IMG/VR virus record: IMGVR_UViG_2675903434_000005
DNA length: 12,547 bases
Direction: 5' to 3' (one strand)
DNA from: a virus
Lineage: Duplodnaviria > Heunggongvirae > Uroviricota > Caudoviricetes
Both the position numbers and the translations under genes were made by a program. Shown here piece by piece: positions 2 through 12,469 of this stretch. Position 1 is the stretch's first letter. Every line of letters begins with the position of its first letter. Under the pieces are notes generated by a model, which was not told the origin of the DNA, did not search any database, and worked only from the letters and a program-made list of their open reading frames with translations.

Positions 2-1282
2 TTAATTTTTCATTGCTTCGTTATGGGGCATGGTTGGGGCAAACTCGCTTAACTGTGTATTTAACAAAGCTACCTGTGCATTATTGTTTTCAGACATCCA
101 TTTTCCGTATACCTGAAATACCATTTGCGCATCTGCATGGCCCATCTGGTTTGCTATAAATGCCGGGTTAGCACCAGCTGTCAGCGACCAGCAGGCATAA
201 GTATGTCTCGACTGATATGATTTTCGATGGCGGAGTCCGGCACGTTTTATCGCTGCGTCCCACATCTGCCTTATTGAGTCAACGGTAAAATGGTCACCAT
301 AATTTTTTACTCTCGCTGACACTTCAGGTTGAAAAACAAAGGTGCATTTATGTTTTTCTGTTCTGCCATACTCTCTGAGGTGAACATCAATGATATGCTC
401 TTTGCTCAGTCTCGTTAATGTCATCTGACTCCGGAGAGCGTCGATTGCTGGCTTAATAAGATGAATGACCCGATTGGTTCCCGCCTGTGTTTTTGGTACC
501 GTGAAACGGTCTTTTGCTAAATTTCTCCTGATCATCATTGTTCCATTTTTCAGATCTATGTCCTCCCATCCAAGTGCACACAGCTCACCAGGGCGAACGC
601 CAGTATAAACAGAAACACACCATAAATTTTTGGCTTGCTGATTTCTGCACGCATCGATAAGACGGATGAATTCCTCCCGCGAAAGAGGATCCGGAATGGT
701 TCTTGATTCCTTTAATGGCGAGATCCCCTTAAACGGGTTATCTGCCAGGTAACCGTTATCAACACCAAACTGGAACACGGCGTTAAGATTTGTCATGTAA
801 TTATTTACAGTTACAGCCGATCTCCCTGGTTGTGTAACAATATAGTTACTTTTGGGGATCTGGTATCCAGTCAGTAGCTCTTTACGAACCTCCAGTAATT
901 TTTCTTTATTAATCGATGAGGCAAGATTTTTTTCACCGATTATGCTCAGGATATTTTTGATGACGGCACGGTATGTGTTGAGTGATGTTTTTGCGACTTC
1001 AGTTTCTTTCAGTGCCAGAAATTTTTCAGCCAGTTCTTTTATGGTTAAATCTTGTCGGGTCTCACCAAATTTTTCCAGATTGCGTGAGGAGGGAAACTGT
1101 TTTGCATAGTCGAAAACACCAGTTTTTATTGCGTAACAAACAGAGGCGCGTAGCTCACCTGCAGCGCGCCTGTTTTTTGCTGTGTCAGGAACCCCCAGGT
1201 TTTCCCTGACTCTTACGCCTTTATAAACAAACCAGATACGTAATTTCCCTCCATGGTTTTCCACGCCTGTCGGATATTTCAT
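2..1282 (-). CDS. Phage tyrosine integrase (site-specific recombinase); stop codon at bases 2-4
   Basis: ORF track 2..1297 (431 aa). C-terminus carries tyrosine-recombinase catalytic residues (HTYACW...GH...Y) and the N-terminus (MKYPTGVE..GK.RIWF) resembles lambdoid prophage integrases from memory. Start chosen at ATG 1282 (MKYPTGV), which has a weak AGAG Shine-Dalgarno; the upstream ATG at 1297 has none. Last gene of the leftward operon, as in lambda int. Confidence 0.85.
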   Translation of the reverse strand: MKYPTGVENHGGKLRIWFVYKGVRVRENLGVPDTAKNRRAAGELRASVCYAIKTGVFDYAKQFPSSRNLEKFGETRQDLTIKELAEKFLALKETEVAKTSLNTYRAVIKNILSIIGEKNLASSINKEKLLEVRKELLTGYQIPKSNYIVTQPGRSAVTVNNYMTNLNAVFQFGVDNGYLADNPFKGISPLKESRTIPDPLSREEFIRLIDACRNQQAKNLWCVSVYTGVRPGELCALGWEDIDLKNGTMMIRRNLAKDRFTVPKTQAGTNRVIHLIKPAIDALRSQMTLTRLSKEHIIDVHLREYGRTEKHKCTFVFQPEVSARVKNYGDHFTVDSIRQMWDAAIKRAGLRHRKSYQSRHTYACWSLTAGANPAFIANQMGHADAQMVFQVYGKWMSENNNAQVALLNTQLSEFAPTMPHNEAMKN

Positions 1283-1316
1283 TTCAATTTCTCTCATTAG
1301 TTAGTGTGGCTTTTAG

Positions 1317-1640: not shown

Positions 1641-4112
1641 TTAAGAATCAGCCTGACTCGGGATCAGTTTTTGCCAGATAACTGAAACGTATTTTGCCTG
1701 GTAACGGGCGTCATCAAGTGCATTATGGCGCTCACCTTCGAATGGAATAGCCGTTCTGGCATCGAAGTCTATGGCTTTCCCCAGCTCAACGATTGTGCGT
1801 ACATCGCGATCGTTGTAGTAACGCCACGGGCAGGGGATCCCCTGCCGTTCGTATGAACGGCGCAAAATCGTGTTGTCGAAGTTGGCTCCATTTCCCCAGA
1901 CCTGAACAAAAAATTCACCGGAGTTTTCGTCGATAAATTCCCACAATTGTAACAGTGCATCATCTAACGGGATTTCATCGGTCATAATGGCAGATTGCGC
2001 TTCGCGTGATTGCTTAAGCCACCATTTAATGGTGTCCCGATCAATGACTCCGCCAGCAGTTTCCAGATCGATAGTCTTACTAAATTCCGGTCCCATATCT
2101 CCGGTTTGCGGATCGAAAAATATTGCACCTATTGAGATGATCGGGGCATCAGGATTTTTTCCCATGGTTTCAAGGTCGATCATTAGATGGTCACACGTCC
2201 TGCTGGTGGATGTGATTTCTTGATGACCGTTCACCTTAATTGAGTGATCTGCCGTCTCGCCAGTTTCATTATCGCTATCGTGATGCTGATTGCCGCCAGT
2301 GTTCTCCTTGTGTGGATGTTCAGCGCCTTCCATTTCCTCCGGATCATCTTCCTGAACTTCAATCTGATACTCTTCATCGAATGTTTCCTGGTATGTTGCG
2401 TCGCCCATTACCGCGCCACAATCAGGGCAGTTGCCGCCGCCGGTCTGACCGCAGGCGGTGCAGACTTTTTCCACTTCCTGTTGCGCCACTGATTCAGGCT
2501 GTTTCGTTTCTGGCTCGTTTTGTAACGCATTTGGGCTGTTTTGTTCCGCTTTTTGGTAGTTCCGTTCCGATTCATGCTGGTTCTGGTTCACAGAATCGCG
2601 GGTCTGGATCCCCTTAACCCATTTCGGATCATTCGGGTCACTAATCCCTTCAACAAATTCACCACGTGATGCAGCAAGCAACTTATCGGCGTCAGGCTGG
2701 ATGATATTGGCTGCCTGCATAATTTTGTTTACTTCGTCAGCGGTAACTTTTATCGGCTCTGGTTGTTCTGAATCTTCAGCGGTATCTACATTTTGCGGTA
2801 AGCCCGTGTATGTGCCATTTTTTCGGGCAAAATATTCTTCTTTTGTGATTTCAGTGGCGCCAGCAGCCAGTGCCTTATCCAGACCAGAAAGTTTGTTTGC
2901 GCGACCGTATTTTTCTCCGTCCTTATCTGCGAAGAGGAAATAGAACGGCCCCTCACGCTCTACAGATGGTTCAGCTTCCGGCGCGGTTTCATTTTTTGGG
3001 ATATCAGATACCTCAGTTTCCACTGCATCAGTTTGTGTTTCTGATGACTGGAGAACATCAACAGTGCCCAGGTCTGTTTCTTCATTCTCAAACACGCCCT
3101 TTGTCGTCAGGTATTCGCAGATATATTTGTTCAGTGCTACGGGATCTTTGTGAATGTCGATCGGACGCTCACGGACAAGGCCAAAAATAGTTTGGCGGTC
3201 GTAGCGAAGGGCATCAGGCTGTTTGCGCATTGATGCCGAGATACGCTTCCAGTCTTCGCGGTCGTTGTCGATAACTTCATTTTTTGCCCAGCGATGGATG
3301 CTGCCGTCAATGTTTCCGGCATCCACATCACCAGGCCAGAGAGCGTAGGCCAGTTCGTCATCCAGTGTTTTCCATGTCTGCTTGTATTCGCGATGAATGG
3401 CAGCAATGACCGGGCTGATTTTTCCTGTTGAATTTTCAGTGTACTGTTGATTGGCTCTGGCGCGGGCGAGATCAACAACAGACGTGTATTTTCCGGTTTC
3501 CTTGCGTTCACCTTCGCGACGTTTTTTCCAGATGCGCATCTCTGCCTGAATTTCGGGCCATTTAGCACCAGGAATACATTTATGCTTAACCCACCCAATG
3601 GCGTGCAACTTAAGCTCCGGATACATGGCGTTAACTTCTGGCATTTTCATCAACGCTTCAACGATATGTCCGTCGAATGTTGCCATGTCTTCCTGCAACA
3701 ATTCCTGTGCGCTAATAACCATATCAACGGTGATGTTTTCACATGTGTCGAACTTAACCATGACAGCGTTCTGTACTTCAGGGGCCAGCTTGTCAAAAGT
3801 GACGTTCATCGGATCGGATTCAGTCTCAACCGGGACAAAAGAAGCAGACTCCTCATCCCAGCGGTTTTCCTGCATATATTCAGCATCCCATGAATCGAGG
3901 GCAGGGCGGGGTATGCCAGGTTTATCCTCGCAGACAATAAATTTATAAGCGCAGTCCTGAGCAGCCGGATAATGTTCCAGGAATTGCCAGTGAAATTTTG
4001 CTCGAGCACGGCGTTCGTCGCCAGCTTCAATGGCTGTGGCTACAGCCACAGCGCCTTCTTCCCTTGTTGCCAGTTCGTCAGGAATAGCGGCGCAAATAAA
4101 GACTTTACTCAT
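1641..4112 (-). CDS. Exonuclease, intact YdfE-like: RecE-like N-terminal region, central CxxC-x7-CxxC zinc ribbon, C-terminal DEDDh 3'-5' exonuclease domain
   Basis: ORF track 1641..4148. Start set at ATG 4112 (MSKVFICAA), which has a GAGG Shine-Dalgarno about 10 nt upstream. C-terminal ~190 aa show DEDDh motifs: MIDLETMG (Exo I), WGNGANFD (Exo II), HNALDDARY (Exo III). The middle holds CTACGQTGGGNCPDCG and Asp/Glu-rich linkers. Occupies the position of ydfE in the Qin gene order. Confidence 0.8.
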   Translation of the reverse strand: MSKVFICAAIPDELATREEGAVAVATAIEAGDERRARAKFHWQFLEHYPAAQDCAYKFIVCEDKPGIPRPALDSWDAEYMQENRWDEESASFVPVETESDPMNVTFDKLAPEVQNAVMVKFDTCENITVDMVISAQELLQEDMATFDGHIVEALMKMPEVNAMYPELKLHAIGWVKHKCIPGAKWPEIQAEMRIWKKRREGERKETGKYTSVVDLARARANQQYTENSTGKISPVIAAIHREYKQTWKTLDDELAYALWPGDVDAGNIDGSIHRWAKNEVIDNDREDWKRISASMRKQPDALRYDRQTIFGLVRERPIDIHKDPVALNKYICEYLTTKGVFENEETDLGTVDVLQSSETQTDAVETEVSDIPKNETAPEAEPSVEREGPFYFLFADKDGEKYGRANKLSGLDKALAAGATEITKEEYFARKNGTYTGLPQNVDTAEDSEQPEPIKVTADEVNKIMQAANIIQPDADKLLAASRGEFVEGISDPNDPKWVKGIQTRDSVNQNQHESERNYQKAEQNSPNALQNEPETKQPESVAQQEVEKVCTACGQTGGGNCPDCGAVMGDATYQETFDEEYQIEVQEDDPEEMEGAEHPHKENTGGNQHHDSDNETGETADHSIKVNGHQEITSTSRTCDHLMIDLETMGKNPDAPIISIGAIFFDPQTGDMGPEFSKTIDLETAGGVIDRDTIKWWLKQSREAQSAIMTDEIPLDDALLQLWEFIDENSGEFFVQVWGNGANFDNTILRRSYERQGIPCPWRYYNDRDVRTIVELGKAIDFDARTAIPFEGERHNALDDARYQAKYVSVIWQKLIPSQADS

Positions 4113-4204
4113 TTGTTTTAACCTCATGACAGATTTAAGGATGAACAAATCCCTGCCATTGCTGGCATATAAGAATGAAACCGGATATTTATTACGGAAC
4201 TGTT

Positions 4205-4396
4205 TTAAAGACCTGCCGGGATTTCGATATTATCCTGGTGAATAACTTTATCGACCGGGTAACAGTTACCGGGAATTTTCTGTTCGGTTGCTGCAGTCAT
4301 ACACTCCTGCATTGTCCTGTGAACACTGACTGCAATATCAACTGGCTCTCCGGAAACAAGAAAAACTGTCAGAACAAGCACAAATGCTGAATTCAT
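4205..4396 (-). CDS. ydfD: YdfD-like small protein with N-terminal hydrophobic segment (63 aa)
   Basis: ATG at 4396 forms an ATGA overlap with the upstream stop, and an AGGA Shine-Dalgarno sits 8 nt upstream. N-terminus MNSAFVLVLTVFLVSG is a predicted transmembrane or signal segment. The 63-aa length and position directly downstream of dicB match Qin ydfD; assignment is by synteny and length. Confidence 0.6.
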   Translation of the reverse strand: MNSAFVLVLTVFLVSGEPVDIAVSVHRTMQECMTAATEQKIPGNCYPVDKVIHQDNIEIPAGL

Positions 4397-4581
4397 TGTG
4401 CACATCCTTTTGGCATCAGACGTAAACGAGCCAGCATTGAAACAATGCATATTTTATTTAATAGCTCCCGTTCTTGTTTTCTCTTGTTAATGGCATCTTC
4501 AGTAAATACTGGGTTACTGATAGTGACACCAATTTCAAAACAACCTTCAGACGTATTAACGTTTGGTAATAACGTTTTCAT
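4393..4581 (-). CDS. dicB: DicB-like cell-division inhibitor (62 aa)
   Basis: ATG at 4581 is preceded by a GAGGA Shine-Dalgarno at 7-nt spacing. It is 62 aa and sits directly downstream of the DicF sequence on the same strand, as in the Qin dicB operon. Confidence 0.7.
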   Translation of the reverse strand: MKTLLPNVNTSEGCFEIGVTISNPVFTEDAINKRKQERELLNKICIVSMLARLRLMPKGCAQ

Positions 4582-4750
4582 TATCGCGTCCTCAACAATG
4601 AATTTTGTGATGCAGTGCCTGGTGCCTCCAGGTGACGTTAACCAGTTAACAATTAACGCCGGATACAGAGAATCCACCCATAACACTGTTTTTGGTTTTA
4701 ACTGTTCCGCGTGCGCTCAGCCGCATTCACCACATCACAAAATTCACTTT

Positions 4751-4808
4751 AAAAAGGGCGGCAGAGCAGTCACGGAGTAAAACTGATACCGCCAAACGTC
4801 ACCAGAAA
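4751..4808 (-). ncRNA. dicF: DicF small regulatory RNA (antisense regulator of ftsZ and other mRNAs)
   Basis: Minus-strand sequence TTTCTGGTGACGTTTGGCGGTATCAGTTTTACTCCGTGACTGCTCTGCCGCCCTTTTT matches the E. coli DicF sequence as I recall it, including the 3' U-tract terminator. It lies between the ydfC-like gene and dicB, as in Qin. Confidence 0.7.
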
Positions 4809-5148
4809 ATTGATAACAGAGGGCGTTGCAGCGGGGTTGTCACTTAAGCGTATGGTCAACCTGACAACCCGGTGTCCTCAACGGGGAAGAAATAACCCCG
4901 CCATACTTACCGCCGCACCATTTCGCGGGTTGCCACAACCGGAAGCGCACGGTCGACGAAAATTTAACGACAGGCTATCTATGAACCAGCTACCTCGCCG
5001 TGCGCTTTCGCGTTATGGTCTGACTTTTCAGGGAAATATCCTTTCAGTAAACTGTCAGTGCCGGATGCTCACCCGTGTCCGGCGCACGCACTCCACCTCA
5101 CCCGTGGAGAACTCCTTAATTACCAACCTTAGCTTCGTTGGTTAGCTA

Positions 5149-5367
5149 TTAACGCGGGTATGTAATCATTCTGGCAATGCTTAATGCCGCTGCTTTTTCC
5201 AGATTGGTGATATCCTGCTCCAGAGCGGACAGATTTTCAGCCTGCTTAGCCCTGGCTTCATTGGCCCATTTCAGATCCTGCGCTGCATTAATTTTCTGGC
5301 GCATCCACTCATAAAGTTCATCATCGGTATAGTCTGGCGCGATGATGACGGGTTCTCGTTTCTGCAT
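5149..5367 (-). CDS. ydfC: YdfC-like small protein (72 aa)
   Basis: ORF track 5149..5367. GAGGAA Shine-Dalgarno about 6 nt upstream of the ATG. The 72-aa length and position upstream of dicF match Qin ydfC. Confidence 0.6.
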   Translation of the reverse strand: MQKREPVIIAPDYTDDELYEWMRQKINAAQDLKWANEARAKQAENLSALEQDITNLEKAAALSIARMITYPR

Positions 5368-5974: not shown

Positions 5975-6613
5975 TTAAATATCTTGTTGAATTTTAAAGC
6001 ATACGCCCAATATGCAAGATAGATCATCCAGCATAATTGAAGGGTAGCGAGGATTCGTGGGGACTAAAAGAATATCCGGCCCTTCTATCTCCAGTTTACG
6101 AATGACAGGTGTTGTGGTCCCTTTGGGTAAGGCAAGGACAATATTTCCTGGTTGTACGGTTCGATCGGGATCAACAAAAACTGTTGAACCATTTGGGATG
6201 GAAACTCCCCCACCAGATGTTGACATACTGTCACTCTCTAGAACAACTGCAAAGGTATTGACCGGGATTTCTCCGACAAGCTGCACACAAGAGGTTATTG
6301 AGGAATTTTTCATATAATCACTCCAGCTTGCTGCCTGCTGAAGTGATAGTAGCGGAACCGTTTTTATCGGCGGTAAAGATAGATCAAGCGAATCACCTGT
6401 ATTTAACTCTCCTCCATTAAGAAGCCAATTTTCGTTTACTTTCAATATTTTTGCCAGTGAACTTATGTAACGCGAGGACGGCGCTCCTCCACCGTTCATC
6501 CATTGACTTACGGAGCCTTTTGATGCGCCAGTGCCATTGACAAGGTCTTTGCCTTTCAGGTTTAGCGCATGCATACGTTGGGTTATGCGTTCAGATATAG
6601 TTTGCTTGCTCAT
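5975..6613 (-). CDS. CI-like prophage repressor (N-terminal HTH, C-terminal S24 LexA-type autopeptidase domain)
   Basis: ORF track 5975..6613 (212 aa). C-terminal motifs align with lambda CI: LESDSM vs VEGNSM (Ser nucleophile), VFVDPDRTVQPGNIVLA vs ILVDPEQAVEPGDFCIA, IRKL vs FKKL (Lys), LVPTNPRYPSI vs LQPLNPQYPMI. N-terminus has an HTH (GASKGSVSQWMNG). Divergent from the Cro-like gene. Confidence 0.9.
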   Translation of the reverse strand: MSKQTISERITQRMHALNLKGKDLVNGTGASKGSVSQWMNGGGAPSSRYISSLAKILKVNENWLLNGGELNTGDSLDLSLPPIKTVPLLSLQQAASWSDYMKNSSITSCVQLVGEIPVNTFAVVLESDSMSTSGGGVSIPNGSTVFVDPDRTVQPGNIVLALPKGTTTPVIRKLEIEGPDILLVPTNPRYPSIMLDDLSCILGVCFKIQQDI

Positions 6614-7357: not shown

Positions 7358-7428
7358 CTGACAATAGCCATATCGAATCGCTTCCGGCAACTCGTGAGTA
7401 AAAAGATTCGGTATCAGAAGAGGTGAGT

Positions 7429-8499
7429 ATGGCTAACGCCTGGCTCAGATTATGGCATGACATGCCAAATGACCCTAAGTGGCGAACAATTGCCAGGGTG
7501 TCAGGGCAGCCAATTGCAACAGTGATGGCAGTGTATATCCACCTCCTGGTGAGCGCGTCACGAAATGTCACGCGAGGTCACATTGATGTCACGACAGAAG
7601 ATTTGGCAAGTGCGCTCGACGTGACAGAAGAGGTAATTGATTCAATTTTGCAGACGATGCAGGGGCGGGTACTTGATGGTGATTTAATCACTGGATGGGA
7701 AAAACGCCAGGTGCTGAAAGAGGACAACGGCAATATTTCGCAAACCGCAAAATCTCCGGCAGAGCGCAAGAGGGCGCAGCGAGAGAGGGAAAGAAAGCGG
7801 GAACAAAATGGCGATTGTCACGGCGCGTCACGAAATGTCACGCACATGTCACGACGAGTCACGACAGATAAAGATACAGATAAAGATACAGATCAAGAAG
7901 ATCAAAACACTATGGTCCATGGCGTAAAAAACGCCACGAACCAGGCAGGGGATGTTCAGACCGTCAATCCTGGTCAGCCAGCAGGCACGACACCGGAAGC
8001 CGATTCAGCGTATGCGCTGAAAGCCGATTCGGGCGCTGTGCAGCAGGTGATGACCCCAAGGCCGGAGCAATCACACCAACTGCAGCAGCCTGAAGCCGAT
8101 TCCGCCATTCAGCGGGAAGCCGATCGGGTAGTCCCGGAAAACACCGGGCTGTCTGTGGGACGAGTGGATTATCCGGATGTGTTCGAACAGGTCTGGCGGG
8201 AGTACCCGTTGCGTGCCGGAGCAAACCCGAAGAAATCCGCTTTCAGTGCCTGGAAGGCCAGATTACGCGAGGGGGTGCCACCAGAGGCCATGCTGGATGG
8301 CGTGAGGCGTTACGCAAGATACTTGGCGGCTACCGGGAAAACGGGAACGGAATTTGTTCAGCGAGCGACGACGTTTTTTGGACCGGACCGGAATTTTGAG
8401 AACCCCTGGTTGCTCCCGGTAAGCGGCACGAACAACCAGCGTTGTGTGAATCATATTTCTGAACCGGATACCGAAATTCCACCGGGCTTCAGGGGGTAA
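7429..8499 (+). CDS. Replication initiator (lambda O-like, replisome-organizer N-terminal domain), origin embedded in the gene
   Basis: ORF track 7423..8499. ATG 7429 is preferred, with AAGAGG about 5 nt upstream. N-terminus ANAWLRLWHDMPNDPKWRTIA resembles phage replisome-organizer N-terminal domains. The gene contains two iteron clusters and an AT-rich tandem repeat, as ori-lambda lies within O. Confidence 0.75.
   Translation: MANAWLRLWHDMPNDPKWRTIARVSGQPIATVMAVYIHLLVSASRNVTRGHIDVTTEDLASALDVTEEVIDSILQTMQGRVLDGDLITGWEKRQVLKEDNGNISQTAKSPAERKRAQRERERKREQNGDCHGASRNVTHMSRRVTTDKDTDKDTDQEDQNTMVHGVKNATNQAGDVQTVNPGQPAGTTPEADSAYALKADSGAVQQVMTPRPEQSHQLQQPEADSAIQREADRVVPENTGLSVGRVDYPDVFEQVWREYPLRAGANPKKSAFSAWKARLREGVPPEAMLDGVRRYARYLAATGKTGTEFVQRATTFFGPDRNFENPWLLPVSGTNNQRCVNHISEPDTEIPPGFRG
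7553..7600. repeat. Iteron cluster 1: four GTCAC(G) copies at 10-11 bp phasing (candidate ori)
   Basis: GTCACG at 7557, 7567 and 7588, plus GTCAC at 7577; helical-turn spacing, inside the replication initiator gene. Confidence 0.5.
7814..7866. repeat. Iteron cluster 2: five GTCACG copies at 10-11 bp phasing (candidate ori)
   Basis: GTCACG at 7817, 7827, 7837, 7848 and 7858. The 21-mer GCGCGTCACGAAATGTCACGC is shared with cluster 1. Confidence 0.5.
7867..7910. repeat. AT-rich tandem repeat next to the iterons (possible DNA-unwinding element with two GATC sites)
   Basis: Perfect 2 x 12-bp tandem GATAAAGATACA (7867-7890), then GATCAAGAAGATCAAAAC; encodes DKDTDKDTDQEDQ within the initiator. Confidence 0.45.
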
Positions 8500-8539: not shown

Positions 8540-8962
8540 GTGGCAAAAGTTTTTACACAAGAAGAGCGAGAAAAAATTAAAGGGCAGGTTGTTGAACTCG
8601 TACGCCAGAGTGGGCGTGAGACGTTACGGCAACTGGAAGTCAAGACAGGTGCGACAAGATATCTGATGAGCGTTCTCGCAAGAGAGCTGGTTGCCAGCGG
8701 CGATGTATACAACTCCGGCTACGGGTTATTCCCCTCTGAACAGGCGCGTAAGGACTGGCAAAACGCCCGCAAAAAACTCTCGAGGGCAAAGGTGAAGAAA
8801 CCTGCTGTGGTTGATCCGGACCTTATCTGGTCATCACCTGACGGAGAAATACGTCGCTACGACAGTCGCCTAAACATAATCTGTCGCGAGTGCCGGAAGA
8901 GTGAAGCTATGCAGCGTGTACTGGCTTTCTATCAGGGTAATTTTCAGGAGGCGGTACTGTGA
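8540..8962 (+). CDS. Hypothetical phage protein (140 aa), GTG start
   Basis: ORF track 8540..8962. GTG at 8540 is preceded by GGAGGG; protein-like composition, C-terminal CRECRK; the stop abuts the next gene region. Confidence 0.6.
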   Translation: MAKVFTQEEREKIKGQVVELVRQSGRETLRQLEVKTGATRYLMSVLARELVASGDVYNSGYGLFPSEQARKDWQNARKKLSRAKVKKPAVVDPDLIWSSPDGEIRRYDSRLNIICRECRKSEAMQRVLAFYQGNFQEAVL

Positions 8963-9019
8963 GTGAAATTAGCTATCAGGCTTCAATTACCGCTGGCATT
9001 CGCATCAAAGGAGAGGAGC

Positions 9020-9376
9020 ATGGAAATAAAACCAGAGGATGAGTTAAGCAATATCGTTTTATTTCCGGTAAAAGAGGATGACCCTCGTAATCAGGTTAAT
9101 TTTCTTTATGAGCCATCGGAAAGACCATATTGTCATCACGCCTCTGTCCGGGTTGACGAAAAAGAGCGTCAGGTCCGCTGTAAAATCTGCGGTGCAGTTG
9201 TGGAGCCATTTGACTGGATGCTCTCTGTGGCGAAAAGAGAAACCAGACTGGCAGATGATGTAAGGCTCTTGCGTCAGGAGGAGCGGGAAAGGCGAAAAAA
9301 TATAGAAAAGCTAATTCAGATTGAGCGTAACGCGAAAGCGCGGATACGCAGGGCGACAAAATCCAGAACTGAATAA
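9020..9376 (+). CDS. Hypothetical protein with CHH...CxxC zinc-ribbon-like motif and basic coiled-coil tail (118 aa)
   Basis: Part of ORF 8963..9376. Start chosen at ATG 9020 (MEIKPEDE), with GGAGAGGAG immediately upstream. Motif PYCHHASVRVDEKERQVRCKICG. Confidence 0.6.
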   Translation: MEIKPEDELSNIVLFPVKEDDPRNQVNFLYEPSERPYCHHASVRVDEKERQVRCKICGAVVEPFDWMLSVAKRETRLADDVRLLRQEERERRKNIEKLIQIERNAKARIRRATKSRTE

Positions 9377-9469
9377 TTAAATTTAGCTCTGTTAAAAATT
9401 TAATCCTTAACCGGAGGGATTTCTGCACCCTCAGAACATCAGGAGGCCGCCCGAAAGGGCGGTAGTTAA

Positions 9470-9652
9470 ATGCGAAAGTTTAAAATAATTATTGAAACGG
9501 GAATAGCCGGTGGAGATTTCGAGGATGAATTCGAAGTGGATGATGATGCGACGCCTGATGAAATACATGACGAAGCAAAAGATATTTTCTTTAACTACTG
9601 CAATTACTCATATCACGAAATAAAAGACGAAGAGGAAGAACAAAATGGCTGA
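9470..9652 (+). CDS. Small highly acidic protein (60 aa, about 21 Asp/Glu against 5 Lys/Arg)
   Basis: ORF track 9470..9652. An AGGAGG Shine-Dalgarno lies 23 nt upstream, with a GC hairpin between it and the ATG. Confidence 0.55.
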   Translation: MRKFKIIIETGIAGGDFEDEFEVDDDATPDEIHDEAKDIFFNYCNYSYHEIKDEEEEQNG

Positions 9653-9821
9653 TTTTGGTTCAACTAAATACAACGTCAGTTTTGAAGAATGGCATGAACT
9701 GTTAATGGACTATGCAGAGTTACGTGGTGGCAGTGCTGCTGATGCTGAAGCATGGCGTGATGATTATGAAGCAGGAAAAACTCCGGTCGAAGCATATTGT
9801 GATGAGTGGGGCGATGAATGA
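9645..9821 (+). CDS. Small acidic Trp-rich protein (58 aa)
   Basis: Translated by hand: MADFGSTKYNVSFEEWHELLMDYAELRGGSAADAEAWRDDYEAGKTPVEAYCDEWGDE. GAGGAAG Shine-Dalgarno about 7 nt upstream; overlaps the upstream stop and ends in an ATGA overlap with the next ORF. Confidence 0.5.
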   Translation: MADFGSTKYNVSFEEWHELLMDYAELRGGSAADAEAWRDDYEAGKTPVEAYCDEWGDE

Positions 9822-10134
9822 GCGAGGTTAATTATCAGGAAGGGCATGAAACGGCGGGGCAAGCAAAAACAGTGGCATGGCGATATCGCTACGTGAAAAA
9901 AAAGGCGTTACGGACTTTCAGGGGAAGTAGTGGTCTGGTGACTGGAAATATGTACCGAAAAAAGAGGATTGTAACGACAGGCCGAACTATGAAATTCAGG
10001 CCTTATTCACTGCCCCGCCAGTCCCGGTTACATCAGAAGAACTGGTTAAAGCTGTGCACTTTTATGAACAACTAAAACGCGAAAATCCACCAGCATCCGG
10101 AAACCTGATTACAGATTCCCAGATAAGGCAATGA
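9818..10134 (+). pseudogene. Disrupted coding region: ATG-initiated frame and stop-coupled frame differ by -1 (frameshift pseudogene or programmed frameshift)
   Basis: Frame A (ATG 9818, coupled to the upstream stop) becomes Lys/Arg-rich and ends at 10075. The -1 frame holds a protein-like 67-codon stretch (WSGDWKYVPKKEDCNDRPNYEIQALF...DSQIRQ) ending in TGA 10132-10134 coupled to a downstream ATG, but has no start and follows TAG 9928-9930. A_AAA_AAG heptamers are phased in frame A at 9898-9904 and 9958-9964. Confidence 0.4.
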
Positions 10135-10567: not shown

Positions 10568-10686
10568 GACTGCGGGTGCTTGAGGCTATCTGTCTCAGGC
10601 ATGAACACCAAAAGGCAGATAGAGAAAAGCCCCAGTTAACATTACGCGTCCTGCAAGACGCTTAACATTAATCTGAGGCCATATCT

Positions 10687-10746
10687 ATGCGACACATAGA
10701 GATTAGCCTCTTACGGACCGAAAGGTCAAGGAGAAGCAGGCTATGA
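10687..10746 (+). CDS. Short leader ORF translationally coupled to hok (mok-like, 19 codons)
   Basis: ATG 10687 with GAGG upstream; its TGA stop (10744-10746) overlaps the hok ATG (10743-10745) as ATGA. Confidence 0.35.
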   Translation: MRHIEISLLRTERSRRSRL

Positions 10747-10898
10747 AGCAGCAAAAGGCGATGTTAATCGCCCTGATCGTCATCTGTTTAACCGTCATAG
10801 TGACGGCACTGGTAACGAGGAAAGACCTCTGCGAGGTACGAATCCGAACCGGCCAGACGGAGGTCGCTGTCTTCACAGCTTACGAACCTGAGGAGTAA
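10743..10898 (+). CDS. hokD: Hok/Gef-family type I toxin (51 aa), RelF/HokD-like
   Basis: Translated by hand: MKQQKAMLIALIVICLTVIVTALVTRKDLCEVRIRTGQTEVAVFTAYEPEE, which has the Hok/Gef signature (single TM helix, TRKxLCE, conserved periplasmic tail). AAGGAG Shine-Dalgarno upstream. Position before the Rem-like and YdfU-like genes matches Qin hokD. Confidence 0.8.
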   Translation: MKQQKAMLIALIVICLTVIVTALVTRKDLCEVRIRTGQTEVAVFTAYEPEE

Positions 10899-10967
10899 GA
10901 GACCTGGCGGGGGAGAAATCCCTCGCCACCTCTGATGTGTCAGGCATCCTCAACGCACCCGCACGTA

Positions 10968-10993
10968 ACCCGCTTCGGCGGGTTTTGTTTTTT
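10968..10993 (+). terminator. Intrinsic terminator at the end of the hok transcript
   Basis: ACCCGC-TTCG-GCGGGT hairpin followed by TTTTGTTTTTT. Confidence 0.6.
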
Positions 10994-11345: not shown

Positions 11346-12395
11346 GTGCGGGTATTACTTCGACCTGTTCTGGTACCGGAACTCGGGGTGGTGATCGTTA
11401 AGCCGGGCCGTGAATCCATGCCGGTATTCCACAATACCCGGGTACTGGTGGAGCCGGAACCGAAAAGCATGCGTAATCTGCCGTCCGGGGTCGTTCCTGC
11501 CGTTCGCCAGCCGCTGGTGGAAGACAAAACATTGCTGCCGTTTTTCAGTAACGCACGGGTGATTCGTGCTGCTGGTGGTGCTGGTGCATTGTCTGACTGG
11601 CTGTTGCGCCATATTAAATCCTGCCAGTGGCCACACGGCGATTATCACCACAGTGAAACCGTCATTCACCGTTATGGTACCGGCGCAATGGTGTTGTGCT
11701 GGCACTGCGACAACCAGCTGCGTGACCAGACATCCGAATCACTCGAGCAACTTGCTCATCAAAACCTGTCAGCATGGATGATTGACGTCATCGGTCACGC
11801 AATAAGCGGTACGCAGGAGCGTGAATTATCTCTGGCTGAATTATCCTGGTGGGCGGTCCGAAATCAGGTGGCGGATGCGCTACCTGAAGCGGTATTACGT
11901 CGCTCGCTGGGATTACCAGCGGAAAAAATCCGCTCAATGTACCGCGAAAGCGACATCGTACCGGGAGAGCAGACCGCCACCAGCATATTGAAACAGCGCA
12001 CAAAAAATCTTGCACTGTTGCCTCACGCCCACCAGGAACAACACCCACTACAGGAAAGGACGGTGGTAAGCATCACCGTTGATCCTGAGTCTCCGGAATC
12101 TTTCATGAAGCTACCTAAACGTCGCCGCTGGGTTAAGGAGAAATACACTCGCTGGGTGAAGACACAGCCGTGTGCTTGCTGCGGTATGCCAGCCGACGAT
12201 CCGCATCATCTGATTGGTCACGGGCAGGGCGGAATGGGAACCAAAGCACATGATCTTTTTGTGTTGCCTTTATGCAGAAAGCATCACGACGAACTGCATA
12301 CGGATACCGTGGCATTTGAAGAGAAGTATGGCTCCCAACTGGAGCTGATTTTTCGATTTATCGATCACGCGCTGGCAATTGGTGTGCTGGCCTAA
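11346..12395 (+). CDS. YdfU-like (DUF968-type) protein, 349 aa, with C-terminal HNH-like zinc-finger motif
   Basis: ORF track 11346..12395. GTG start preceded by GGAGG at 6-nt spacing. C-terminus CACCGMPADDPHHLIGHG...LCRKHHDELH resembles an HNH nuclease fold. Length and position immediately upstream of Q match Qin ydfU. Confidence 0.8.
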   Translation: MRVLLRPVLVPELGVVIVKPGRESMPVFHNTRVLVEPEPKSMRNLPSGVVPAVRQPLVEDKTLLPFFSNARVIRAAGGAGALSDWLLRHIKSCQWPHGDYHHSETVIHRYGTGAMVLCWHCDNQLRDQTSESLEQLAHQNLSAWMIDVIGHAISGTQERELSLAELSWWAVRNQVADALPEAVLRRSLGLPAEKIRSMYRESDIVPGEQTATSILKQRTKNLALLPHAHQEQHPLQERTVVSITVDPESPESFMKLPKRRRWVKEKYTRWVKTQPCACCGMPADDPHHLIGHGQGGMGTKAHDLFVLPLCRKHHDELHTDTVAFEEKYGSQLELIFRFIDHALAIGVLA

Positions 12396-12459: not shown

Positions 12460-12469
12460 NNNNNNNNNN
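12460..12469. other. Run of 10 ambiguous bases (assembly gap or mask)
   Basis: Literal n x 10 in the sequence. Confidence 0.99.

Follow-up and report, generated by a model that had tools for sequence, protein, structure and literature searches.

Two unrelated families of very acidic small proteins from an Escherichia coli lambdoid prophage as candidate counter-defence factors

Introduction

What do two adjacent, very acidic small proteins contribute to the mobile element that encodes them? The question is raised by IMG/VR virus record IMGVR_UViG_2675903434_000005, a 12,547-nucleotide (nt) stretch of DNA (the whole of which we refer to as the window) that is a degraded Rac/Qin-type lambdoid prophage of an Escherichia coli host and carries two overlapping open reading frames (ORFs) of this kind, ORF1 and ORF2. 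An original prediction, made from the sequence alone, had described the function of their products as undescribed and had likened them to DNA-mimic anti-restriction or anti-defence proteins such as Ocr and ArdA. The first of these statements holds, as ORF1 is catalogued only as a DUF and a PHROG and ORF2 only as a PHROG, and a literature search gave no functional account of either beyond a software prediction.

We find that ORF1 and ORF2 are unrelated and independently mobile, and that they are linked only in E. coli lambdoid prophages. Both belong to families that are already catalogued but have no solved relative, and both are candidate counter-defence factors. In the explanation that we favour, to which we assign a probability of roughly 0.38, they are two independent, single-domain acidic accessory proteins of small size, each of which would bind a host nucleic-acid-binding protein stoichiometrically, as a decoy, while the element grows lytically or becomes established.

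Two overlapping genes encode very acidic proteins

ORF1 and ORF2 lie in tandem and are followed by a third frame, ORF3:

9470-9652, plus strand: ORF1, 60 amino acids, DUF7167 (PF23768), phrog_1997
9632-9636, plus strand: Shine-Dalgarno sequence of ORF2 (GAGGA), within the 3' end of ORF1 and 8 nt before the ATG at 9645
9645-9821, plus strand: ORF2, 58 amino acids, unnamed family phrog_519 (C-terminal part)
9818-10075, plus strand: ORF3, 85 amino acids, net charge +16, degraded remnant of a 171-amino-acid gene

The ORF1 product contains nine aspartates, 11 glutamates, four lysines and one arginine, which gives it an isoelectric point of 4.05 and a computed net charge of -15, close to the earlier estimate of about -16 for a 60-residue protein. 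The ORF2 product also has an isoelectric point of 4.05, and its length of 58 residues, net charge of -12 and three tryptophans, all of them predicted, were reproduced by computation. The two are the most acidic ORFs of the window: among all 47 ATG-started ORFs of at least 50 amino acids in its six frames, ORF1 ranks first in acidity per residue, at -0.25, and ORF2, at -0.21, falls beyond the fifth percentile. The overlap that had been noted between the two genes measures 8 nt (octamer ATGGCTGA, positions 9645-9652), an arrangement that suggests translational coupling. The GC content is 0.37 for ORF1 and 0.44 for ORF2, compared with 0.48 for the window and 0.51-0.54 for the neighbouring replication genes.

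Purifying selection and decay in cryptic prophages

Of 5426 complete E. coli genomes, 2656 contain a 721-nt region with the ORF1-ORF2 cassette. Probed on its own, ORF1 with its leader was placed in 1874 complete genomes (2200 places), and ORF2, likewise probed alone, in 1904 (2215 places); about 35% of complete genomes have lambdoid prophages that carry the linked cassette. Intact, 100% identical copies of both genes occur in many genomes and in inducible phages, and identical or near-identical copies are found in sequenced temperate phages including the Stx phage ArgO145. The ratio of non-synonymous to synonymous substitution rates (dN/dS, Nei-Gojobori) against the variant found in Qin is 0.10 for ORF1 and 0.18 for ORF2, and that of ORF2 against its homologue on IncI2 plasmids is 0.09; both are real genes under purifying selection.

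The class of copies at 90-95% identity comprises 750 records for the ORF1 probe, and the two that we sampled, which come from Qin-type cryptic prophages (PhiR42_1 and strain PC6), share a K37stop mutation in ORF1 and a W37stop mutation together with an ATG-to-GTG change in ORF2. Both genes thus decay where the prophage can no longer grow lytically, a pattern that speaks for a function serving the life cycle of the phage, whether in lytic growth or on entering a new cell, and not the lysogen.

ORF3 is flagged by RefSeq as 'frameshifted; internal stop'. Relative to the intact 171-amino-acid gene (locus L148:3349-3864), its A-run at 9896-9903 carries a +2 insertion, and an internal stop and a deletion further along disrupt it as well; the homology between the two ends after about 280 nt. 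The net charge of ORF3, +16, arises because translation runs out of frame, and as such a frameshift artefact ORF3 was discarded as a candidate toxin or basic partner. Only its first 16 amino acids are similar to ead/Ea22-like N-termini. The gene downstream of ORF2 differs in every lineage.

ORF1 and ORF2 belong to independently mobile families

Residues 2-53 of ORF1 align with the whole of the 60-position Pfam DUF7167 profile (PF23768; positions 1-60, E 7.9e-15, 55.1 bits against a cut-off of 24.4); RefSeq likewise labels it a DUF7167 family protein, and it matches phrog_1997 with an E-value of 9e-31. A tblastn search recovered ORF1 in 38 phage records, including E. coli lambdoids, with homologues in a Klebsiella prophage (70% identity), a Guernseyvirinae phage (48%), Enterococcus Kochikohdavirus phages (about 42%) and 150-kb Pseudomonas and E. 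coli phages (37%), and we detected ORF1 on only 15 plasmids. The family conserves the motifs MR+F+V.IET, FEV.DDAT.EEI and A+D.F, a cysteine and the acidic tail across phages of Gram-negative and Gram-positive hosts. ORF2 is absent from all the ORF1 contexts outside E. coli that we examined. An IMG/VR scan seeded with ORF1 of the window returned identical E. coli copies only, and a scan seeded with a distant member returned about 20 diverse contexts with no recurrent informative neighbour.

Pfam, NCBIfam and PADLOC scans yielded no family other than DUF7167 for ORF1 and none at all for ORF2; residues 1-58 of ORF2 align with positions 76-137 of the 143-position profile of phrog_519 (E 4.5e-23), to which PHROG assigns no function and whose additional N-terminal columns derive from longer mosaic or fused members. 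An exhaustive hidden Markov model (HMM) search of 1.84 billion representatives, started from an alignment of 66 ORF2 sequences and thresholded at E up to 1e-3, yielded 203 clusters at 50% identity, nearly all of them stand-alone proteins of 47-70 amino acids. Homologues of ORF1 and ORF2 are found across bacterial phyla.

The elements that carry ORF2 are highly diverse. It occurs in 202 phage records, comprising Ackermannviridae (Kuttervirus, in which it comes after the major capsid gene, and Taipeivirus), Lastavirus, Autographiviridae (T7-like; Koutsourovirus phiKDA1) and one Drexlerviridae phage. Mu-like prophages of Aquitalea carry it too, as do P2-like prophages of Salmonella and Morganella, in which it comes immediately after gpA, on the border of the variable gpA-portal region. 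It is also present in 561 plasmids, of which 516 are predicted to be conjugative, with IncI2, IncT and IncU/MOBH types represented. IncI2 plasmids, among them the mcr-1.1 plasmid pC2, have a copy of 88% identity located behind a DUF1187 gene, in an operon that opens with a CaiF/GrlA-type regulator and continues by way of SPFH/NfeD genes to type IV secretion system genes; this copy lies about 15 kb from mobC on the circular plasmid, across repA and on the side opposite the relaxase. The copies on IncT and IncU/MOBH megaplasmids (49-52% identity) lie in long same-strand arrays of small hypothetical genes.

We made several further observations on the ORF2 locus. The same 8-nt overlap recurs with three unrelated genes upstream of ORF2, encoding DUF7167, DUF1187 and a 140-amino-acid membrane protein: ATGGCTGA is found at 9645-9652 of the window, at L013:1793-1800 and at L015:7001-7008, and in each case the upstream gene ends with a G-stop inside codons 1-3 of ORF2. 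This overlap is not universal, as it is lacking in locus L144 and the P2-like copies differ. The 3' end of ORF2 (9745-9821 of the window) behaves as a recombination joint; its last 77 nt reappear with 98.7% identity as the C-terminus of an unrelated 125-amino-acid protein in phage phiSTEC1575-Stx2k (L004:3001-3077), and a 21-codon relic of ORF2 lies out of frame 5' of a methyltransferase gene in the P1-like phage JL22 (L039:3501-3574). On a JGI metagenome contig, a distant ORF2 homologue (36% identity) and an unrelated 51-amino-acid ORF each precede a SocA_Panacea (PanA antitoxin-domain) gene, a layout that resembles two modules of a small gene plus PanA (L032:3297-4210 and 4250-5176).

Predicted folds and conserved acidity

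The AlphaFold2 model of ORF1, computed from the single sequence, consists of a beta-hairpin (strands 2-8 and 17-23) followed by a helix (29-58), with a predicted local distance difference test (pLDDT) score of 80 and a low-confidence acidic tail. The ORF2 model, computed from the 66-sequence alignment (pLDDT 88), is a three-helix bundle (13-27, 34-42 and 47-55). Foldseek detected no fold match in the PDB for either model (best E 2.6 and 2.9), and searches of the PDB with both families by sequence (phmmer) and by profile (hmmsearch) returned nothing better than E 0.13.

The near-invariant residues of ORF2 (F13, W16, L20, A24, W37, Y41, G44 and W55) follow the spacing of a helical core. Aspartate or glutamate is at least 75% conserved at positions 15, 33, 35, 39, 40, 42, 53 and 58, and the net charge of the family has a median of -7 to -9; among 103 distant representatives the median is -7 and 95% are negative. 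Since both these positions and the negative charge are kept family-wide, the sequences indicate that the acidity of ORF2 is selected and partly position-specific, centred on helix 2.

A putative split ribosome-binding site precedes ORF1

The region delimited by the original prediction begins at 9441, which is the first base of the ORF1 Shine-Dalgarno sequence. Two elements make up the leader:

9441-9446, plus strand: Shine-Dalgarno sequence of ORF1 (AGGAGG), 23 nt 5' of the AUG
9446-9463, plus strand: hairpin GCCGCCC-GAAA-GGGCGGU, with seven GC-rich base pairs and a GAAA (GNRA) loop, between the Shine-Dalgarno sequence and the start codon

The 18-nt hairpin is found in both the minimum free energy and the centroid folds and is followed by AGUUAA and the ORF1 AUG. 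The leader is likely to be a split ribosome-binding site, because looping the hairpin out reduces the spacing between the Shine-Dalgarno sequence and the AUG from 23 nt to 6 nt. Bacteriophage T4 genes 38 and 25 have split ribosome-binding sites in which a hairpin between these two elements restores a functional spacing; the ORF1 leader resembles them in its distant Shine-Dalgarno sequence and stable intervening hairpin, whereas the ORF1 hairpin could instead be an mRNA stabiliser or a processing site. It does not vary among the E. coli copies examined, the 90%-identity Qin variant among them, and these copies therefore provide no covariation by which to judge the split site. We ruled out an intrinsic terminator, as the hairpin has no T-run and was not flagged by terminator prediction, and no Rfam family covers it.

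Homology of the window to phage ArgO145 and to strain 03_3013, an E. coli that produces Shiga toxin (STEC), starts about 33 nt 5' of the ORF1 ATG, at a mobile boundary, and the leader (Shine-Dalgarno sequence and hairpin) moves with ORF1 between prophage contexts. From position 8400 on the plus strand, no promoter-like or terminator-like site was found before 10967. The cassette thus has neither a promoter nor a terminator to itself and is probably transcribed during lytic growth together with the replication genes, as part of the early rightward operon. In STEC prophages and ArgO145, an additional gene encoding a 70-amino-acid acidic, Trp-rich protein (phrog_4659) lies between a zinc-ribbon ORF and ORF1 (L037:3572-3784 and L002:4755-4967); we rejected it as an ORF2 paralogue (HMM E 0.29).

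Proposed role of ORF1 and ORF2

The explanation that we favour would operate as follows. The E. coli cassette, in which the Shine-Dalgarno sequence, the hairpin and ORF1 are followed by the overlapping ORF2, would be expressed early with the replication genes, with ORF1 translated from the putative split site. Each protein would then act alone as a stoichiometric binder: with its conserved negative surface it would fill the site at which a host protein, most probably an enzyme of defence or DNA processing, binds nucleic acid, and the incoming or replicating DNA of the mobile element would thereby be protected. We count in favour of this explanation the purifying selection, the acidity of the ORF2 family, the spread over unrelated mobile elements and the decay in cryptic prophages, as well as the low GC content, the mobile boundary 33 nt upstream of ORF1 and the absence of a dedicated promoter or terminator. 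A counter-defence or host-protein decoy role is plausible.

A broader proposal, which we put forward tentatively and regard as somewhat doubtful, is that the ORF2 family constitutes an unrecognised and widespread counter-defence factor, a 50-60-amino-acid acidic three-helix decoy that no fewer than six unrelated phage groups, as well as conjugative plasmids of the IncI2 (mcr-1-type), IncT and MOBH types, would direct against a common host nucleic-acid-targeting defence, with DUF7167 (ORF1) as a second, independent inhibitor, possibly of a host nuclease.

The genomic neighbours of ORF2 provide weak clues, by guilt by association. A NADAR gene precedes the ORF2 homologue of phage IME392 by 18 nt and is fused to that of phage EP_H11; NADARs of phages (AdfN) counteract DarTG1 (PMC11825919). 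Small toxin-blocking counter-defence proteins such as the anti-DarT factors AdfA and AdfB are among the known systems that come closest. The NADAR link is, however, confined to these 2 of about 750 records, and we rejected it as a general rule. The long matches of the exhaustive search are mostly devoid of Pfam domains, and the fusions, including one to a RIIB-like domain and one to GemA, are single cases. This rarity and the confined NADAR link both caution against reading too much into these clues. An apparent fusion of ORF2 to DUF1187 was rejected as a read-through of the neighbouring IncI2 gene. Among other neighbours, a gene next to ORF2 in a Mu-like prophage has a weak match to the Acb2/Tad1 hairpin, and the position of ORF2 beside the variable gpA-portal region of P2-like prophages, where one locus carries an nSTAND ATPase, is a further indirect clue to counter-defence.

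Kuttervirus members of phrog_519 have been predicted by software to be anti-CRISPR (Acr) proteins (PMC9409062), and this prediction and a proteome table were all that a literature search on DUF7167, the PHROG identifiers and the accessions of member proteins retrieved; the supplements of accessory-gene screens and of an anti-defence prediction paper contained no real match to the motifs or family identifiers. The neighbours of the cassette in the window are the zinc-ribbon ORF and a pseudogene, with no adjacent helix-turn-helix gene such as the aca-type regulators that mark anti-CRISPR loci, and neither protein matches a solved Acr in the PDB.

Alternative explanations

The main alternative, which we consider unlikely, is that ORF1 and ORF2 modulate development or host physiology in the manner of the lambda exo-xis proteins (Orf60a, Orf61, Orf63 and Ea8.5) and Ea22, and would bind host transcription factors or RNA polymerase and so tune the lysis-lysogeny decision or stress responses. 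Like ORF1 and ORF2, the exo-xis proteins are small, early lambdoid accessory proteins, and their function is poorly defined (PMC8614690, PMC10869804). An ead/Ea22-like gene usually comes after the ORF1-ORF2 cassette, which in ArgO145 and STEC prophages shares its mosaic block with ead/Ea22-like, DUF551, TraR-like and HNH genes. However, there is no lysis-lysogeny decision in virulent phages or conjugative plasmids, where ORF2 is likewise common, and ORF1 occurs in virulent Enterococcus Herelleviridae. The PDB holds Orf63, Ea8.5 and Ea22, and yet ORF1 and ORF2 have no sequence similarity to solved exo-xis proteins and no sequence or profile similarity to any PDB entry, in search tables that were not checked by name for these three proteins. 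Should the two proteins be modulators nonetheless, they would enlarge the poorly understood set of lambdoid accessory proteins.

The proposal made originally is a sub-case of the decoy explanation, in which ORF1 and ORF2 would mimic DNA as Ocr and ArdA do and, by filling the DNA-binding groove, inhibit restriction-modification of type I (and BREX); we regard it as quite unlikely. Its premise stands, as the acidity is extreme and is kept across the ORF2 family, and both proteins resemble T7 Ocr (gp0.3) and the ArdA of plasmids and transposons in being small, very acidic and encoded in early or establishment regions of mobile elements. ORF2 resembles ardA in that phages and conjugative plasmids share it, and the PLSDB gene table, which is incomplete, lists no ardA for the IncI2 plasmid examined. 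Against this, no Pfam Ocr or ArdA match was found at E up to 1 for either protein, no sequence, profile or fold similarity to these proteins was detected, and nothing singles out type I restriction-modification. The profile searches that had been recommended led to DUF7167 for ORF1 and to no Pfam family for ORF2, hence to no family of known function and to no mimic family. Structure prediction, recommended likewise, went against the proposal: both models are compact and have no PDB match, known DNA mimics included. The predicted monomers (beta-beta-alpha for ORF1, a three-helix bundle for ORF2) have 58-60 residues, about half the size or less of Ocr and ArdA, which form elongated dimers. Taken as a whole, the original interpretation is partly supported; its specific DNA-mimic claim has no direct support.

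In a further sub-case of the decoy explanation, suggested by exonuclease neighbours, ORF1 would inhibit a host exonuclease or helicase-nuclease (RecBCD or AddAB), like T7 gp5.9, lambda Gam and P22 Abc2, and so protect linear replication products and let phage recombination work. T7 gp5.9 is an acidic protein of about 52 amino acids that forms a helical dimer, and gene 5.9 and lambda gam adjoin the exonuclease genes of their phages. Correspondingly, the ORF1 homologue of the Guernseyvirinae phage VLCpiS11a overlaps the start of an exonuclease gene and is adjoined by a Gp2.5-like annealing protein, that of the Enterococcus Kochikohdavirus MDA2 directly follows an exonuclease gene, and homologues elsewhere sit in replication or recombination modules; the size (56-60 amino acids) and acidity of ORF1 are also similar to those of gp5.9. 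Nevertheless, exonuclease adjacency is confined to these two lineages, ORF1 has no homology to gp5.9 or Gam and no sequence or fold match in the PDB, and its predicted beta-hairpin and helix are unlike the gp5.9 fold. Moreover, RecBCD and AddAB differ in architecture, yet ORF1 is about 42% identical between E. coli and Enterococcus phages. We judge this role to be very unlikely.

Far less probable still is an obligate ORF1-ORF2 pair, such as a heterodimer or two-component system, or an acidic antitoxin-like partnership with ORF3. The overlap and probable coupling of the two genes, the near-equal counts of the E. coli probes (2200 and 2215 places) and the net charge of ORF3 would fit such arrangements, but the distribution largely refutes them: outside E. 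coli lambdoids each gene occurs without the other, ORF2 following a DUF1187, membrane protein, gpA or NADAR gene and ORF1 homologues being followed by unrelated genes. ORF3, a frameshifted and truncated remnant, does not provide the intact, conserved partner toxin of a type II toxin-antitoxin system. Finally, the notion that ORF1 and ORF2 are chance ORFs or decaying junk, which might be prompted by the degraded prophage, the adjacent pseudogene and the stop codons of Qin-type copies, is refuted by conservation (dN/dS of 0.09-0.18, intact identical copies in many genomes and inducible phages, and homologues across phyla).

Significance

ORF1 and ORF2 are at present a well-defined candidate rather than a discovery. 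Should either protein block an enzyme of defence or repair, as the decoy explanation would have it, the counter-defence repertoire would gain a new inhibitor family of very small size. For experiments the ORF2 family is the more attractive target, being broad and present both in therapeutic-type phages and on IncI2 plasmids. About one third of complete E. coli genomes carry it, as do therapeutic-type Kuttervirus phages and the mcr-1-bearing IncI2 plasmid type, so that its target could bear both on the host range of phages and on the spread of plasmids. Both proteins are small enough for direct biochemical and structural work.

Prophage setting

The remaining features of the window are those of a lambdoid prophage with divergent leftward and rightward arms:

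2-1297, minus strand: integrase
leftward arm: excisionase
1641-4148, minus strand: RecE-like exonuclease
4393-4581, minus strand: ORF for the DicB cell-division inhibitor, 62 amino acids, in the leftward operon
4756-4807, minus strand: DicF small RNA (Rfam, 76.7 bits), in the leftward operon
5975-6613, minus strand: cI-type repressor
rightward arm, before the O-like replication gene: cro/cII-like genes
7423-8499, rightward: O-like replication gene
8540-8962, rightward: DUF977
8963-9376, rightward: zinc-ribbon/coiled-coil ORF, 137 amino acids (118 with the RefSeq start)
10574-10745, plus strand: sok RNA (Rfam, 106.7 bits)
10743-10898, plus strand: hokD ORF
10967-10984, plus strand: terminator-like hairpin with a T-run
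between hok/sok and DUF968: rem-like ORF
11346-12395, rightward: DUF968

DicF and DicB in the leftward operon make the prophage Qin/Kim-like on that arm. In the product of the ORF at 8963-9376, which belongs to phrog_1621 and has only a weak Pfam Zn_Ribbon_TF match, a basic coiled coil comes after a CxxC...CxxC zinc ribbon; a homologue is named 'class I SAM-dependent methyltransferase' in some RefSeq and phage records, a name that the present data do not support. The hok/sok-type locus is complete (10574-10984, plus strand), and 10 masked bases (N) lie at 12460-12469, just 3' of the DUF968 gene. The placement of ORF1 and ORF2 between the replication genes and Q, as originally proposed, agrees with the O-like gene upstream and with strain WB61, in which an identical locus is followed downstream by RusA and a remnant of the Q antiterminator, Q itself lying outside the window.

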